64,000 nucleotides of DNA from a bacterium (GTDB taxonomy: Bacteria; Patescibacteriota; Microgenomatia; UBA1406; GWC2-37-13). Position numbers and translations under genes: made by a program. A model generated the notes under the pieces. That model ran no database searches. It was not told the DNA's origin and saw nothing but the letters and a program-made list of their open reading frames with translations. Below are positions 28,943 to 49,632 of the stretch, in pieces (position 1 is the stretch's first letter; each line of letters begins with the position of its first letter). The DNA lies in the NCBI GenBank assembly GCA_043798165.1, contig JAZDOY010000034.1, positions 17,778 to 81,777 of the forward strand. The letters run 5' to 3'.

Positions 28943-30409
28943 ATGACACCACGGATACGTATACATGAAATATATGTAAACCCCACATCCTTCCACATCT
29001 TCTTTTCACACAGCGGAAAAAATACATTCGCAGATCTCCCCCCAGAGCTTCAAAAACGCATTCAATTTAAAGCGGAAAAAGATGATTTTTCTGGAAAAAA
29101 AAGTGAACTTATCCATATAGAAACTGTTTCAGAAAAAGGGATAGAGCATGTAGTCGTTATTGGTATGGAGGAGGAATCAACGCATGATTTGAAAGTAATT
29201 CGAAGGCAAACGAGCAAGGCCGTTGAGCTTGCCAGAAAAGTTAAGGCACAGGAAATAACGGTGCATGTAAAAACACACACAAAAAAAATACAGGCAATAG
29301 TAGAAGGCATTTATTTGGGTGATTATTCATTTGATACTTTTAAAAGTAAAGAATCTCAAAAAAAACATCCCCACATTATAGATGTATATTTGCTAACTCC
29401 TGAAACTGAAGAAACAAAAAAATCTGTTTCACACGGAATTAAAACGGCTACTGCAGTCCTTTTGACGAAAGACTTAGTCAATACTCCTGCCTCGCATTTA
29501 CATCCAGAAACTCTTGTGGTGCAGGCGAAAGAAATTGAAAAAAAATCGGAGGGGGCAGTCACAGTCACAGTCCTCCAAGAAACAGAATGTAAAAAGGAAG
29601 GGATGGGTGCATTCTTGGGCGTTGCGCAGGGGAGTGAACGAAAGCCTGCATTCATTATCCTTCACTATAAAGGAAGTGGACAGAAAAAATTTGCTTTTGT
29701 TGGTAAATCAATCACTTTTGATTCAGGAGGCCTTTCCCTCAAACCAAGTGAGGGGATGATGGATATGAAAATTGATATGGCGGGGGGGGCTGCGGTACTT
29801 GGAGTATTTGACTATTTAGCATCTCAAAAACCTCACATATCCGCTTTTTCCGACGTTTATGGAGTTTTACCAGCCTGTGAAAATATGCCGTCAGGAAAAG
29901 CAATGAAACCAGGAGATATTGTCACGGCATTAAATGGAAAAACGATAGAGGTATTAAATACAGATGCGGAAGGAAGATTGGCTCTCGCAGACGCACTCGT
30001 ATATGCAGAAACAAAGCTCAAGGCTGATTATATTATCGATATGGCCACACTCACAGGAGCGTGTATGGTAGCTCTTGGCCCAGACCTTGCCGGGTTATTT
30101 TGTAACAATGATATATTTGAAAAACAATATAGTATTTCCGCGCATCTTACCAACGACGATTACTGGAGAATGCCACTCCATAGTGAATATCTGTCTCAGA
30201 TGAAAAGCACACTTGCGGATTTAAAAAATATCGGCGGAGGAAGATACGGGGGAGCAATAACAGCTGCACTATTTTTAAAAGAATTTGTAAAAAAAGCAAA
30301 ATGGATGCATATTGATATTGCGGGACCTGCTCATACGGATAAAAAAGGGGCATCGGGATGGGGAGTTTTATCAGTTATATATTTTCTCGAACAATTTACA
30401 AAAGTATGA
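28943..30409 (+). CDS. pepA: leucyl aminopeptidase (M17)
   Basis: Has the M17 signature NTDAEGRLALADAL and the metal ligand blocks VGKSITFDSGG and DMAGGAA. Confidence 0.92.
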   Translation: MTPRIRIHEIYVNPTSFHIFFSHSGKNTFADLPPELQKRIQFKAEKDDFSGKKSELIHIETVSEKGIEHVVVIGMEEESTHDLKVIRRQTSKAVELARKVKAQEITVHVKTHTKKIQAIVEGIYLGDYSFDTFKSKESQKKHPHIIDVYLLTPETEETKKSVSHGIKTATAVLLTKDLVNTPASHLHPETLVVQAKEIEKKSEGAVTVTVLQETECKKEGMGAFLGVAQGSERKPAFIILHYKGSGQKKFAFVGKSITFDSGGLSLKPSEGMMDMKIDMAGGAAVLGVFDYLASQKPHISAFSDVYGVLPACENMPSGKAMKPGDIVTALNGKTIEVLNTDAEGRLALADALVYAETKLKADYIIDMATLTGACMVALGPDLAGLFCNNDIFEKQYSISAHLTNDDYWRMPLHSEYLSQMKSTLADLKNIGGGRYGGAITAALFLKEFVKKAKWMHIDIAGPAHTDKKGASGWGVLSVIYFLEQFTKV

Positions 30410-35762: not shown

Positions 35763-35850
35763 GATATAACTTTACCCTCGTTAGTGATTAAACAGTCCAT
35801 TAAAATATATTAACTTATTGGATATTTATTAACCTATAGTATATAATACT

Positions 35851-42556: not shown

Positions 42557-43327
42557 ATGCTGATAGAAAAACGCATTCGCTTCGTTATCTCAACTGTCAG
42601 CCTTACACTCCTTCTTCTTGTTTCTACATTTTTCTTTTTTGATAAAGCTGTTTTTTTTCTTCCGTTACTTATCCTTGCAAGCTATTGCGCCACATTTTTC
42701 TCACTTTTTGAAGGGATAGAAAAAATAGAATGGTATATGTTGTTTCTCATGCCCGTATTGCTCTCTGTTGCCATGTATTTGTTTTATTTTCTGTTTCCGG
42801 TACGATGGTTGACCCGCATACCCTTTATCCTCATTTATGGCATTAGCATGTATGCAATGCTTCTTTCATCAAATATTTTTAACGTCGGGGTGGAAAAAAA
42901 TCTTCAGCTCTATAGAGCTGGCTTTTCGGTAAATTACTTCATACAGACAATGGTGTTTTTCTTATTAGGAAATGTTCTGGCATCTTTCCATTGGGGCTTC
43001 TTGGCAAACACGCTTGTATTTAGTCTCCTTTCAGGAGCAATGTCTCTTCAGTTGTACTGGAGTATTAAACTTGACATGCATATCCGAAAAGAAGTATTAA
43101 ATCATGCCTGGCTCACCGCGCTCATTGTGGGTGAGGGAAGTTTGCTGTTGTCTTTTTTACCTCTTCAGGAGTCCATGTTCGCCCTGGTCATTGCAGTGCT
43201 ATATTACTGCGTTGCTGGGCTTACACACCTTCATCTTGATGAGCGATTATTCAAGCACAGTGTGAGAGAATATGCAACGATCCTGATTGTCATTCTTGTA
43301 ATCCTTTTTCTTTCCATAAGTTGGTAA
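42557..43327 (+). CDS. polytopic membrane protein, hypothetical
   Basis: 256 aa with about 7 hydrophobic helices. It follows yebC by 5 nt. No family was recognised. Confidence 0.5.
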   Translation: MLIEKRIRFVISTVSLTLLLLVSTFFFFDKAVFFLPLLILASYCATFFSLFEGIEKIEWYMLFLMPVLLSVAMYLFYFLFPVRWLTRIPFILIYGISMYAMLLSSNIFNVGVEKNLQLYRAGFSVNYFIQTMVFFLLGNVLASFHWGFLANTLVFSLLSGAMSLQLYWSIKLDMHIRKEVLNHAWLTALIVGEGSLLLSFLPLQESMFALVIAVLYYCVAGLTHLHLDERLFKHSVREYATILIVILVILFLSISW

Positions 43328-43392
43328 AATACACACACCGCTTCATAAGACACAAAGCACAGAGCCCAGGCTAGGGGAGAGGGGAGGAAAAA

Positions 43393-43490
43393 ATACGAAC
43401 GTGAATAATAGACCTATAGTATTTATATCCCATAGTATCCTATAATAATTAATTTACTATAGGACTTTATTTTAACGTTCGTATGTTTTT
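43393..43490 (+). terminator. very long hairpin followed by T-run (possible terminator of the yebC operon, or first helix of a larger structured element)
   Basis: ATACGAACGT-gaataatag-ACCTATAGTA (43393-43421) pairs with TACTATAGG-actttatttta-ACGTTCGTAT (43455-43484). GTTTTT follows, and an A-run precedes the hairpin. Confidence 0.4.
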
Positions 43491-44354
43491 CGACAGATAC
43501 TCCGTTGGACCTCATTTGGTGAGGACCTCTCCCTTCAGGGGAGAATGTGGATAACTTCTTCACACTTAGCCTCATATCTTCTTCTCTAGAGCGATACATC
43601 AATCTAAATAAATGTTATATATTGATATAGTTTGAGGGCAAAAACAGCCTCAAAAACGCAATATTAGATTGATACAATGCTCTAAACATGAGATACTCCC
43701 CGGGGTATTGTGGTGTCGCGTGATAAAGATCACACTACCGTAAGTGATATCCAAAAATAGCCTTGAAAGTGGTAATTTAGAGCAACATTATGTGCTAAAT
43801 CATACACCATATAGCCACGTTATGTCGTATTTATCTATTGATTGAAAGTGGTCAAGTATCCACAACCAATAGCAACTATATGTTCGCGCGATGATACAAG
43901 AACATGTGATATGTAAGTATGTGAAGAGAAGAAGCGGATCTCCGTTCCCCTGAAAGAAAGATACACACACTTATTTCTTGTTCAGCCGACTGGCAGACTT
44001 GTGACACAAATTCCCGCAGAGAGAAGGATATATACAACGTCGTATAATGTATCTTTTACGACGTCAGCCAGGCTCAAAAGAGGGGGGTTGGGTAAAATAA
44101 ACAAATGAAGAATAAACAAATTATTTGTTTATTTGATTATTATTTTATTTATTTATTTCTTTATTTCCCCTCTCAATTCCCCTCTTAATTTGTTTCCTCG
44201 TTTTTCCCGTTTCGGCGTAAAGAAATAATTCCCGCAAATAACCGCATTAGAGCGCAATGACAGTCTATTTAATTATTTGATTATTATTCACTTGATTCCC
44301 TACCCCTCATCCCTTCTTGTGAGGTGTGTGGCTGGGGGTATATAATGTATATCT

Positions 44355-45179
44355 ATGCTTACCACCCTTGAGGAAACTGCACGAGTCGCCGGAGCAATTG
44401 TCCTCTCTTACTTTCATAAGGAGTCTCACATAACACATAAAACGTCACACAACGATCTTGTTACCGCCGCTGATATTGCAAGCCAACAGTGTATTCATGA
44501 CACCATTACGAAAAAATTGGTCCAAAAAGGAATTTCAGAAAATGAAATTGGTTTTATCAGTGAAGAGAATCTTTCAACGCGCAACGCAACACATATGTTT
44601 GTCATTGACCCACTCGATGGAACAAATAATTTTGCCTCAGGCCTTGATTATTTTGCAGTCTCTATTGCGTACTTTAATAAGGGAGTCCTTACAGACAGCG
44701 TTATCTATTGGCCGGTTCGGGACACAATGTATTCTGCATCAAAAGGAAAAGGTGCGTATAAAAAAGACGCACACGGTAAAAAAGTAAAACTGACGGTAAA
44801 GGATGATCTTTTGGAAAATTCCGTCATATTGACGTACATTTCATCTCATAAGGAATACCACCAGAAACAAATGGTGTTTATCGAAAAAATTCTTGTTCGC
44901 GTAAGAGGTTTGAGATTATATGGCTCGGCATGCATTGATCTTGTCCACCTTGCTGACGGAGAAAATACCGTGCATATCGTTTTTTATGCACACATATATC
45001 TATGGGACTTTGCTGCGGCATATTTGATTATTGATGAAAGTGGAGGCGTATGTACAGATCTTTCCGGGAAAGTCATAACTCTTGACGTAACTTCTTCCAA
45101 ACGCGAGTATGAACTCTTAGCTGCACACCCAAACGTGATAAAAGAACTCAAAAAATACCTTCCACAACCTTTTATATAA
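44355..45179 (+). CDS. suhB: inositol monophosphatase-family protein (SuhB-like)
   Basis: Has the IMPase motifs FISEE, VIDPLDGTNNF and WDFAAAYLII. Confidence 0.85.
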   Translation: MLTTLEETARVAGAIVLSYFHKESHITHKTSHNDLVTAADIASQQCIHDTITKKLVQKGISENEIGFISEENLSTRNATHMFVIDPLDGTNNFASGLDYFAVSIAYFNKGVLTDSVIYWPVRDTMYSASKGKGAYKKDAHGKKVKLTVKDDLLENSVILTYISSHKEYHQKQMVFIEKILVRVRGLRLYGSACIDLVHLADGENTVHIVFYAHIYLWDFAAAYLIIDESGGVCTDLSGKVITLDVTSSKREYELLAAHPNVIKELKKYLPQPFI

Positions 45180-48669: not shown

Positions 48670-49632
48670 AGATCATGAGTATATACCATCAATTATATAA
48701 AATCTACAAAGCCGATAAAATAATGATGAAAGATAGGACACATACCATATAAATAGTGTCTTGCGAGAAACATAAACACTAAAAAAAAGAAGTGAGAAAA
48801 AACTCATATAAGAGCAGTATAAATATAACAAGTATAGACTGCCCTTACAAGCTAATTCAATAAAAATATGTGATTTATCACATCCATTTTATAGGTAAAC
48901 TTATAGTTTTAGAGGCGTCAACCTTAATGTATATAGGTAGATAAAAATTCAAAATAACTTGTCCTGACAGCCTAGAAGAAAACAAAGCGGCAACTAGCAG
49001 TCACTAAGGTGGTTTGCTAACCATACTATAGGACAAACATACACACTCCATATACACAACAACCGTTCCCCTCCTCTCTGATTGTATGATCCTATTCTTT
49101 TCATGGTAAAGCATATAATTGCACAATGCAAGAAGTATTTACATACTGTAAACTACAATACACCAACAATTGAAATGTTTTCCATAAATAGTGTGTCAAT
49201 GTAATATAGCTATATAGAGCATATAGACAAGAGAAGATAAATTTCCATTCTTTCTTAGAAAGAAACAATTATTATTAATTTCTTTCCATCTTTGGATAAC
49301 GTGCAATAGTAGTGACCCATCGATAAGCGGTATTATAAATAGTTTGGAACGGATGAAGTTAAATACCCCAACATTGATTGAAATAAAAGTTAAGAAATCT
49401 TTCACTCGTTTTCATTCTCTCCTTACTTATATCTATGTCAAATAGTATGCAGATAGACACATTATAAAGTAATGGGGCCGAGTGAGAGAAACAGTGATAT
49501 AGTACTTGAAAAATTCACAAGAAAACTAAAGAGACACCGTTCTCCCACTCTCTCTTAGCATATATGAAAAATGTAAATGCAAAGTCAACAAGCAATAACC
49601 AAATAAAGATTGTCACAAAGCCCTAAATAAAA

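Follow-up and report, generated by a model that had tools for sequence, protein, structure and literature searches.

A conserved 1-kb gene-free locus of an uncultured bacterial lineage is a candidate replication terminus with a non-canonical dif-like site

The 64-kb window analysed here, i.e. the whole stretch of 64,000 nucleotides from contig JAZDOY010000034.1, contains a region of 1.03 kb (positions 43328-44354) that is densely filled with nested inverted repeats and devoid of genes, and the question arises which function such an element may have. An earlier note on this DNA had described the region as lacking open reading frames (ORFs) of 60 aa or more and had regarded it as a large structured RNA or as a replication or regulatory element. 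The lack of coding capacity was confirmed, as the longest ORF overlapping the region comprises 59 aa. The accompanying remark that gaps between genes are usually smaller than 150 bp holds for the window in general but not for a second ORF-free gap of ~960 bp at 48670-49632. The data presented below favor, with a probability of about 0.58, the interpretation that the element is a conserved replication-terminus locus located at the replichore junction and carrying a non-canonical dif-like site. The locus is likely to mark the replichore junction; that the dif-like 28-mer within it is the site of dimer resolution has about an even chance of being correct. The part of the earlier proposal that pointed to replication thus went in the right direction, in view of a polarity switch and the dif-like site, but has to be modified to the terminus rather than the origin.

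The ~1-kb element was detected in about 35 loci of uncultured bacteria, with one copy per contig and nearly always directly after yebC and a gene encoding a DUF5656 protein. The first seven related genome bins were recovered by a genome scan with the suhB-like protein and show the order yebC, DUF5656 gene and ~1-kb ORF-free gap. Eighteen further loci were obtained by a metagenome scan with the most conserved 28-mer of the element, and ten more via DUF5656 homologues, seven of them from relatives in which the DUF5656 protein is 55-64% identical to that of the window; single loci are referred to by L numbers. A total of 657 DUF5656 homologues implies that more than 100 such loci exist. A scan of a viral contig collection with the 28-mer gave no matches. 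The same sequence blocks are present in all loci and their order is kept in most of them, L033 being distinguished by extra modules, a displaced DnaA box and an expanded element (L033:6620-8030) that is separated from the DUF5656 gene by suhB. The overall identity of the element is 50-65%, compared with 55-90% for the flanking proteins, yet stretches of 9-45 nt are 100% invariant. The syntenic loci that had been proposed as a check on conservation therefore do keep the sequence blocks of the element. A coding origin, including the decayed pseudogene named as an alternative in the earlier note, was rejected, since L001, L002, L003 and L006 are likewise free of ORFs at this position (at a threshold of 80 aa) and the conservation is arranged in contiguous blocks without codon periodicity on reading by eye.

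The position of the element on the chromosome was deduced from the distribution of short words. When all words of 6 to 8 nt were examined for a change of strand near the element, attention was drawn to the heptamer AGGGGAG, which occurs 17 times in the window, versus 4.5 +/- 1.9 expected (~4x), or about once per 3.6 kb:

5994, 7500, 11877, 13471, 23004, 29628, 31799 and 34761, plus strand: AGGGGAG
35707, 38432, 38440, 42192, 43373, 43380 and 43537, plus strand: AGGGGAG
54142 and 62042, minus strand: AGGGGAG

All 15 copies to the left of position 43544 are located on the plus strand and both copies to the right on the minus strand. When the split point was left free, AGGGGAG took the top position among 3158 heptamers and was divided at 43537; a perfect division, at other positions, was also seen for two further heptamers, so that the window alone is not decisive. 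The change point of the hexamer AGGGGA was mapped between 43537 and 43946, with a permutation p of 0.00025. In the related loci, with the element itself excluded, the ratio of plus to minus copies was 47:0 on the left and 0:11 on the right, and a coding-strand effect is contradicted by ten of these copies, which are antisense to the local gene. An unbiased ranking of heptamers in 158 kb of flanking DNA from 15 loci placed AGGGGAG at the top (52:1, p = 6e-15), followed by overlapping variants, and in loci fetched after the hypothesis had been formed the ratios were 16:0 to the left and 1:8 to the right of the element. The first minus-strand copies were found 178-236 nt past the 28-mer in L031, L033 and L034. 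Moreover, gene orientation converges on the element, with 74 kb on the plus versus 33 kb on the minus strand to the left and 27 kb versus 45 kb to the right.

Over-represented purine-rich words that occur with ~100% preference on one strand and flip at dif constitute the published signature of FtsK-orienting polar sequences (KOPS) and SpoIIIE recognition sequences (SRS), and for KOPS a skew of >=90% near dif, at least one copy per 40 kb and over-representation have been named as criteria (PMC3384302). Locally, i.e. in the 64-kb window and in flanks of about 10 kb or less, AGGGGAG displays all of these properties, its polarity in the window being 100%. The same signature of polar words is known from Chi sites, and AGGGGAG is accordingly a candidate for a KOPS- or Chi-like chromosome-polarity word of this lineage. 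Genes are preferentially co-oriented with replication. A terminus is preferred to an origin because both the word polarity and the gene orientation converge and because dnaA, dnaN and parAB were not found in the 64-kb window.

The second line of evidence is provided by a sequence that lies in intergenic DNA at the flip of AGGGGAG polarity and gene orientation:

44037-44064, no strand assigned: candidate dif-like 28-mer ACGTCGTATAA-TGTATC-TTTTACGACGT

The hairpin ACGTCGTA...TACGACGT noticed earlier is present at exactly this position. The 28-mer consists of two inverted arms of 11 bp, in which 10 of the 11 positions are complementary (11 of 11 in L030), around a centre of 6 bp, and this 11-6-11 layout is that of tyrosine-recombinase core sites. 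It occurs once per contig. Of the 25 loci recovered first, 23 have the identical sequence, and the deviations in the other two, L001 and L006, are confined to the central hexamer. The distant loci retain 8 outer bp per arm, apart from one outer-arm change in L031 and L033 (ACATCGTA), while the inner A/T bases and the centre vary: L027, L031, L033 and L034 have TAAAT-TGTATC as inner arm and centre, and L030, in which the arms match perfectly, has TAAAA-TGGAGC. The left arm and centre of the main clade (..CGTATAATGTAT..) resemble the E. coli dif sequence GGTGCGCATAATGTATATTATGTTAAAT, and the 28-mer of this clade reads ATAATGTAT, as in dif. When a weight matrix derived from 23 published dif sites was used to score all 28-mers on both strands of the window, this sequence ranked first with 12.6 bits, the next one reaching 11.4 bits. 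The number of complementary pairs between positions 7-12 and 17-22, counted by reading, is 4 in the main clade and 5 in L030, the published criterion for dif being >4 (PMC3025954).

The TATAAT hexamer of the 28-mer was also considered as a promoter -10 region and rejected, since the distant loci have TAAATT or TAAAAT instead. Furthermore, the left half of the 28-mer together with upstream bases (ACAACGTCGTATAATGT) recurs as an exact 17-nt copy at L010:12415-12431, within a DNA-alkylation-repair gene; its distance from the real site is 8.9 kb. Half-sites are left behind by integrative elements that use Xer recombination; the copy in L010 is probably due to chance.

Several observations weigh against a terminus locus with a dif-like site. 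The score of 12.6 bits lies at the bottom of the range of real sites (11.5-33 for the 23 training sites), the 28-mer is not the top match of the matrix in distant loci, and the dif-like ATAATGTAT is restricted to the main clade. The conserved XerD arm TTATGTTAAAT is absent, the right arm TTTTACGACGT mirroring the left one instead, although no part of dif is conserved better than the XerD-binding arm (PMC2731167). Neither xer nor ftsK was detected in those ORFs of the window that were scanned. Published dif sites have variable surroundings (PMC2731167), so that a conserved flank of ~800 bp is not explained by dif alone. One AGGGGAG in L033 and the word AGAGGGG in most loci are located on the plus strand just right of the 28-mer, which means that, strictly, the words converge on the adjacent A/T tract. 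The third-position GC skew carries no replication signal; GC skew and third-position GC skew had been tried for locating origin or terminus and were discarded as unusable, the bulk skew tracking the gene strand, and the choice of terminus over origin consequently rests on gene orientation, on the analogy with purine-rich leading-strand motifs and on the lack of dnaA, dnaN and parAB in the 64 kb. Finally, L027, L032 and L033 have, in place of the palindrome at 43693-43708, hairpins that differ from it in length and sequence, some relatives contain an optional hairpin, and in L033 a GC hairpin is inserted inside the TAGCC/CTCAAAA word, which is RNA-like behavior. With respect to its sequence, the 28-mer is thus a dif-like site and not a canonical XerCD dif, and the mirrored arms together with the missing canonical XerD arm imply that a recombinase acting on it would probably be an atypical Xer enzyme or one that works singly.

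The 28-mer is embedded in an ordered set of further blocks, which together with the two neighboring genes are arranged as follows (a strand is given where one was assigned):

42557-43327: gene of a DUF5656 membrane protein (256 aa; PF18900, precomputed Pfam), left neighbor of the element
43373-43386, plus strand: tandem AGGGGAG pair forming the G-rich box GGGGAGAGGGGAG at the left edge, pointing toward the 28-mer
43395-43482: repeat block, helix 1 of the earlier note
43530-43543, plus strand: pyrimidine/purine hairpin CTCCC-TTCA-GGGGAG with the third AGGGGAG at 43537-43543
43546-43554, minus strand: TGTGGATAA, the reverse complement of the DnaA-box consensus TTATCCACA, as a single conserved copy
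43566-43799: three modules, each combining a (T)TAGCCTCAAAA-like word with a subsequent 24-bp quasi-palindrome TTTAG-N14-CTAAA
43923-43951: conserved purine-rich block GAAGAGAAGAAGCGGATCTCCGTTCCCCT
44008-44027: AAATTCCCGCA followed by GAGAGAAGG, directly upstream of the 28-mer
44076-44186: AAAAGAGGGGGG (44076-44087), A/T tract (44093-44166), CCCCTCTC (44167-44174) and CCCCTCTT (44179-44186)
44226-44346, plus strand: distal part with TAATTCCCGCAAATAACCGCATTAGAGCG (44226-44254), a C-rich box and the promoter-like TTGTGA-N18-TATAAT (44317-44346) in front of suhB
44355-45179: suhB-like inositol-monophosphatase gene, right neighbor of the element

The inverted and direct repeats listed in the earlier note were all found at or near the positions reported there. 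They include the arms of helix 1 (43388-43405/43472-43489 and 43410-43421/43455-43463) and of helix 2 (43580-43607/43664-43691, 75% complementary), the direct repeat TTGAAAGTGGT at 43763 and 43842, the G-rich box at 43373-43386, the C-rich boxes at 44167-44174 and 44179-44186 and the A/T tract of 74 bp. The G-rich box GGGGAGAGGGGAG is kept in most homologues, 640-720 nt upstream of the 28-mer. The repeat block starts with ACGAACGTG (43395-43403) and continues with CCTATAGTA and two near copies in direct orientation (43413-43421, 43429-43437 and 43439-43447), the inverted copy TACTATAGG (43455-43463) and ACGTTCGT (43475-43482); its motifs are invariant without compensatory change, and the CCTATAGTA repeats have ACGnnCGTGAATAA flanks. 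The AGGGGAG copy at 43537-43543 is the last one on the plus strand before the flip, and the sequence of the hairpin containing it varies among homologues. The DnaA box is present as one conserved copy per element, in the form TGTGTATAA in L012, L013, L017 and L018; a few elements have a second near-match, and a cluster of DnaA boxes was found in none.

The quasi-palindromes of the three modules are located at 43585-43609 (M1), 43663-43686 (M2) and 43776-43799 (M3), and helix 2 corresponds to M1 pairing with M2. The intervening sequences comprise TTGATATAGTTTG (43622-43634), the palindrome ATACTCCCCGGGGTAT (43693-43708; ATACTCC..GGAGTAT) and the optional hairpin (43710-43738). The AGCCTC core of the modules is inverted to GAGGCT, or a near variant, in L003, L009, L023 and L033. 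In L033, five modules were scored and six were counted by reading, and two of them carry the GC-rich hairpin CTGCCTCCCGGCAGGCAGG within the TAGCC/CTCAAAA word. The word AAATTCCCGCA is present twice, and AATTCCCGCA occurs again at 44227-44236. Downstream of the 28-mer, G-rich words on opposite strands face each other over the 74-bp A/T tract, which is conserved in composition. The distal part is placed outside the core because it is absent from L001 and L006 and partial in L013. In relatives, the sequence upstream of suhB (44300-44346 region) contains CTCTTTTGAGGCT, which resembles a boxA element; suhB is autoregulated via boxA and Nus factors in enterobacteria. Resemblances of the element to parS, CIRCE and Noc sites were restricted to short shared cores and were dropped.

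Taken together, the blocks behave as sequence words whose orientation can be inverted and whose copy number varies, which suits protein-binding DNA, and we infer by analogy that they are binding sites for terminus-associated proteins with accessory, fork-arrest or terminus-anchoring roles. According to the proposed mechanism, the AGGGGAG heptamers would act as KOPS/SRS (or Chi-like) words that steer an FtsK-type translocase to the locus, a Xer-type recombinase would resolve chromosome dimers at the 28-mer, and terminus-associated proteins would bind to the single DnaA box, to the CCTATAGTA repeats and to the three modules with their TAGCCTCAAAA words and quasi-palindromes. A more far-reaching and doubtful version is that the whole 1-kb locus represents a compact 'terminus centre' of a kind not described before, in which a single conserved cassette would combine a non-canonical dimer-resolution site, converging guide heptamers, a clamped A/T tract and oriented binding-site arrays. 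The CCTATAGTA repeats and the modules would then serve a terminus-specific protein for fork arrest, anchoring or as a recombination accessory.

The left neighborhood of the element is constant and consists of the genes for a Kef-type exchanger, a 299-aa protein and a tetratricopeptide repeat (TPR) protein, followed by yebC and the DUF5656 gene. The right neighbor is variable, being suhB in either orientation or a gene for an alpha/beta hydrolase, an aminotransferase or a 374-aa protein. This arrangement bears on a rival explanation that we regard as unlikely, namely that the region is a dense regulatory stretch of promoters, operators and one or more small RNAs, with the words representing transcription-factor sites without a role in replication. 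It offers no consistent target for regulation, since the upstream gene ends at the element and the downstream neighbor changes; and the six promoter-like sites detected, among them TTGATA-17-GATACT (43669-43697) and TTGTGA-18-TATAAT (44317-44346), are to be compared with 4.6 +/- 2.4 expected by chance. The polarity switch and the 11-6-11 site would also be left unexplained. On the other hand, exact CCTATAGTA, which contains TATAGT, is confined to intergenic DNA of the window, with 4 copies versus 0.23 expected. Outside the element it occurs at 35833-35841 (plus strand) and at 49024-49032 (minus strand), the latter position being part of the second conserved gap at 48670-49632, which also shares the words ATACYCC and TTAGCC with the element. 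Part of the element may therefore be involved in ordinary transcriptional signalling, CCTATAGTA may be a specific promoter element or a transcription-factor site, and the regulatory explanation could hold for part of the element. It was also observed that each copy of CCTATAGTA is preceded by an A/T-rich stretch ending in AC or ACC.

The second gap, in minus-strand orientation, is situated between a DsbA-like gene and a gene for a 377-aa protein. It contains a core of ~300 nt that is conserved in relatives (L002:10336-10942, L006:11510-12138, L010:6652-7160 and L003:10468-10778) and that is composed of ACCTATAGTA and a subsequent hairpin TTAGCAGAC..GTCTGCTAA in addition to the shared words. 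An Rfam search of this gap gave no match at E-values up to 1, and the gap may contain an unannotated small RNA or another regulatory locus.

Slightly less probable than regulation is a large structured noncoding RNA of ~0.7-1 kb transcribed from the plus strand, in which the blocks would be loops and junctions and the inverted repeats helices. Strong block-wise conservation of a region that is ORF-free throughout the clade is compatible with such an RNA, as are the replacement of the hairpin at 43693-43708 in distant relatives, the optional hairpins and the GC hairpin inserted into a motif of L033. Folding was better than that of mononucleotide shuffles by 25-59 kcal/mol in 22 of 23 homologues and by 14-16 kcal/mol in L027, and from this excess over shuffled sequence it follows that the inverted repeats go beyond chance. 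However, the mean excess is alike on the two strands (-36 versus -40 kcal/mol). Raw energies favored the plus strand in 18 of 23 cases, but this preference vanished when each strand was compared with its own shuffles and was rejected; the plus-strand signature of G-T pairs claimed previously could not be upheld, as no G-U signature was detected. The impression of the earlier note that no known RNA family is recognizable was borne out by Rfam 15, which yielded no match at the gathering threshold and only chance-level microRNA-type matches at E-values up to 10, and by ARAGORN, which found neither tRNA nor tmRNA in the region.

Analysis of covariation provided no support for an RNA either. RNAalifold was applied to three consecutive segments of ~300 nt with 17 diverse homologues each and predicted only 12, 15 and 14 pairs, nearly all of them in invariant inverted repeats, with covariation terms of -0.04, +0.06 and -0.63 kcal/mol. 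The pairings of helix 2 (M1-M2), of the within-module hairpins and of M2 with M3 were tested against 3' partners shuffled among the sequences: 73-79% of the cells paired, compared with 75-80% for shuffled partners, and the covariation scores did not exceed those of the shuffles. The modules can pair because all of them copy one quasi-palindromic word and not because partners co-evolve, and their inner arms are only 2-3 of 4 complementary in about half of the cases. In L001 and L030 the outer arms of helix 1 (ACGnnCGT) are repeated directly rather than inverted, and L027 contains no 3' half of this helix. The two long-range pairings that had been considered possible join purine-rich with pyrimidine-rich tracts in many possible registers, and their pairs are not kept in relatives. 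A few double changes do occur in CCCCT/AGGGG and between the module-2 word and the distal TGAGGCT. The latter was the best case of covariation and was rejected, since it represents one quasi-palindromic word, TTTTAGCCTCAAAA, that flips its orientation and is reverse-complemented in some modules of L003, L009, L023 (near variant) and L033; a search of all column pairs for covarying helices returned mostly purine/pyrimidine tracts and was likewise discarded. A conserved terminator was looked for in the element and not found, and the promoter-like sites do not exceed the chance level. Large ornate bacterial RNAs such as OLE, GOLLD, ROOL and raiA resemble the element in size, in being conserved ORF-free regions and in having many hairpins, and OLE also adjoins a membrane-protein gene, but these RNAs have abundant covariation and Rfam models, neither of which applies to the element. 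A search of the literature on DUF5656 and on structured RNAs in these candidate phyla gave no results. These data indicate that the region is most likely a cis-acting DNA locus and not an RNA gene; they also show that dense nested inverted repeats in combination with strong conservation can mimic a large structured RNA without covariation.

An improbable alternative is that the polarity switch marks the chromosomal origin (oriC), in which the A/T tract between G/C runs would serve for unwinding and the DnaA box would be accompanied by iteron-like repeats. The consensus DnaA box is indeed conserved and its position fixed, and its one common variant TGTGTATAA deviates at a position that is degenerate in the relaxed consensus TTWTNCACA. 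Many motifs are repeated in both orientations, and the 74-bp A/T tract is conserved in composition, a feature that is not specific for origins. Nevertheless, the single conserved DnaA box of each element is not part of a cluster, the upstream genes point into the element, AGGGGAG and gene orientation converge where they should diverge from an origin, and dnaA, dnaN, gyrB, parAB and rpmH were not found in the 64-kb window, dnaA or dnaN being usual neighbors of an origin.

Least probable is a relic of an integrated mobile element, e.g. a gene-less one using Xer recombination, that has been kept by chance: the resemblance of the 28-mer to a recombinase core site, the similar G-rich boxes that bracket ~700 bp (43368-43386 and 44070-44087) and the variable gene content to the right are outweighed by the constant position, by a divergence that tracks the host genes down to 55% protein identity, and by the lack of a second full site, of an integrase nearby and of matches in the viral contig collection, the extra genes beside the site in L001 and L002, which had been examined as a possible integrated element, encoding alpha/beta hydrolases.

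The interpretation as a replication terminus allows a comparison with known systems. The XerCD/dif and FtsK/KOPS systems of Escherichia coli and of most Proteobacteria and Firmicutes share with the element a single non-coding 28-bp site of 11-6-11 layout and converging skewed G-rich words. The differences concern the right arm TTTTACGACGT, which mirrors the left arm in place of the conserved XerD arm TTATGTTAAAT, the G+C content of the site (10/28, 36%), which contrary to the expectation for a canonical dif is not well below that of the window (~38%), and the ~800 bp of conserved sequence around the site, the surroundings of published dif being variable (PMC2731167). The polar word is the heptamer AGGGGAG at ~one per 3.6 kb, and the guiding motif of L. 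lactis is the purine heptamer GAAGAAG (PMC3384302). Departures from the canonical dif sequence are also found in XerS/difSL of streptococci and lactococci and in XerH/difH of Helicobacter and Campylobacter, in which the recombinase gene usually adjoins the site (PMC2731167), whereas no recombinase gene was detected here, either in the larger window ORFs that were scanned or in the genes called for the related loci. The difH consensus TGAAAAC...TTTTCA is unrelated to the sequence of the 28-mer.

In the plasmid sites cer and psi, which function independently of FtsK, PepA binds together with ArgR or ArcA to ~160-190 bp of accessory sequence next to a core site. They are similar to the element in that the core site has, on one of its sides, an extended conserved sequence for protein binding, which is putative here, but they are plasmid-borne, whereas the element is chromosomal, has a conserved flank of ~650 bp and lies among KOPS-like words. 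A PepA-family gene was noticed at 28943-30409 in the window; its presence is probably coincidental. Terminus arrays are known from Bacillus subtilis, with the RTP/Ter inverted-repeat region and XerD-binding sites (XDS), from the MatP/matS system and from ZapT of Caulobacter. They likewise comprise short, repeated and partly palindromic terminus sites, some of which are orientation-sensitive. The Ter, matS and XDS sites have no sequence similarity to the element, in which all sites are packed into one 1-kb locus, and no homologues of Tus, RTP or MatP were identified, the Pfam matches of the neighboring genes including no family recognized as Tus or RTP. With regard to fork traps (Tus-Ter or RTP-Ter), which rely on asymmetric sites facing each other across the terminus and on a cognate terminator protein, the 24-bp modules and the TAGCCTCAAAA words occur in both orientations, and their orientation is inconsistent across clades.

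Additional observations were made on the window and on the contigs sharing the locus. The genome bins L001-L007 bear conflicting labels (Gammaproteobacteria, Microgenomates, Roizmanbacteria and Patescibacteria). Two contigs from the same sample, L028 (Ga0453684_0000008, 1,200,052 bp, element at ~999 kb) and L036 (Ga0453684_0000009, 1,139,914 bp, element at ~944 kb), may be near-complete genomes; the element is located at 0.83 of the length in both, and from the similarity of these fractions it seems that the two contigs begin or break at a common point. Genes for de novo pyrimidine synthesis (pyrB, carAB, pyrC, pyrD and pyrF) are also present in the window, at 9.8-19 kb; this pathway is regarded as unusual in bacteria of the candidate phyla radiation.

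If the interpretation as a terminus is correct, the element shows where replication ends and where dimers are likely to be resolved in an uncultured lineage about which little is known, and AGGGGAG could help to orient assemblies of these genomes and to check them. The new aspect is the presence of a dif-like site within ~800 bp of near-invariant, repeat-built sequence, as known dif sites are isolated 28-mers with variable surroundings, and this conserved flank suggests extra functions at the terminus. Should the concept of a 'terminus centre' be true, the lineage would specify its replication terminus by one defined multi-protein DNA element, much like an origin.

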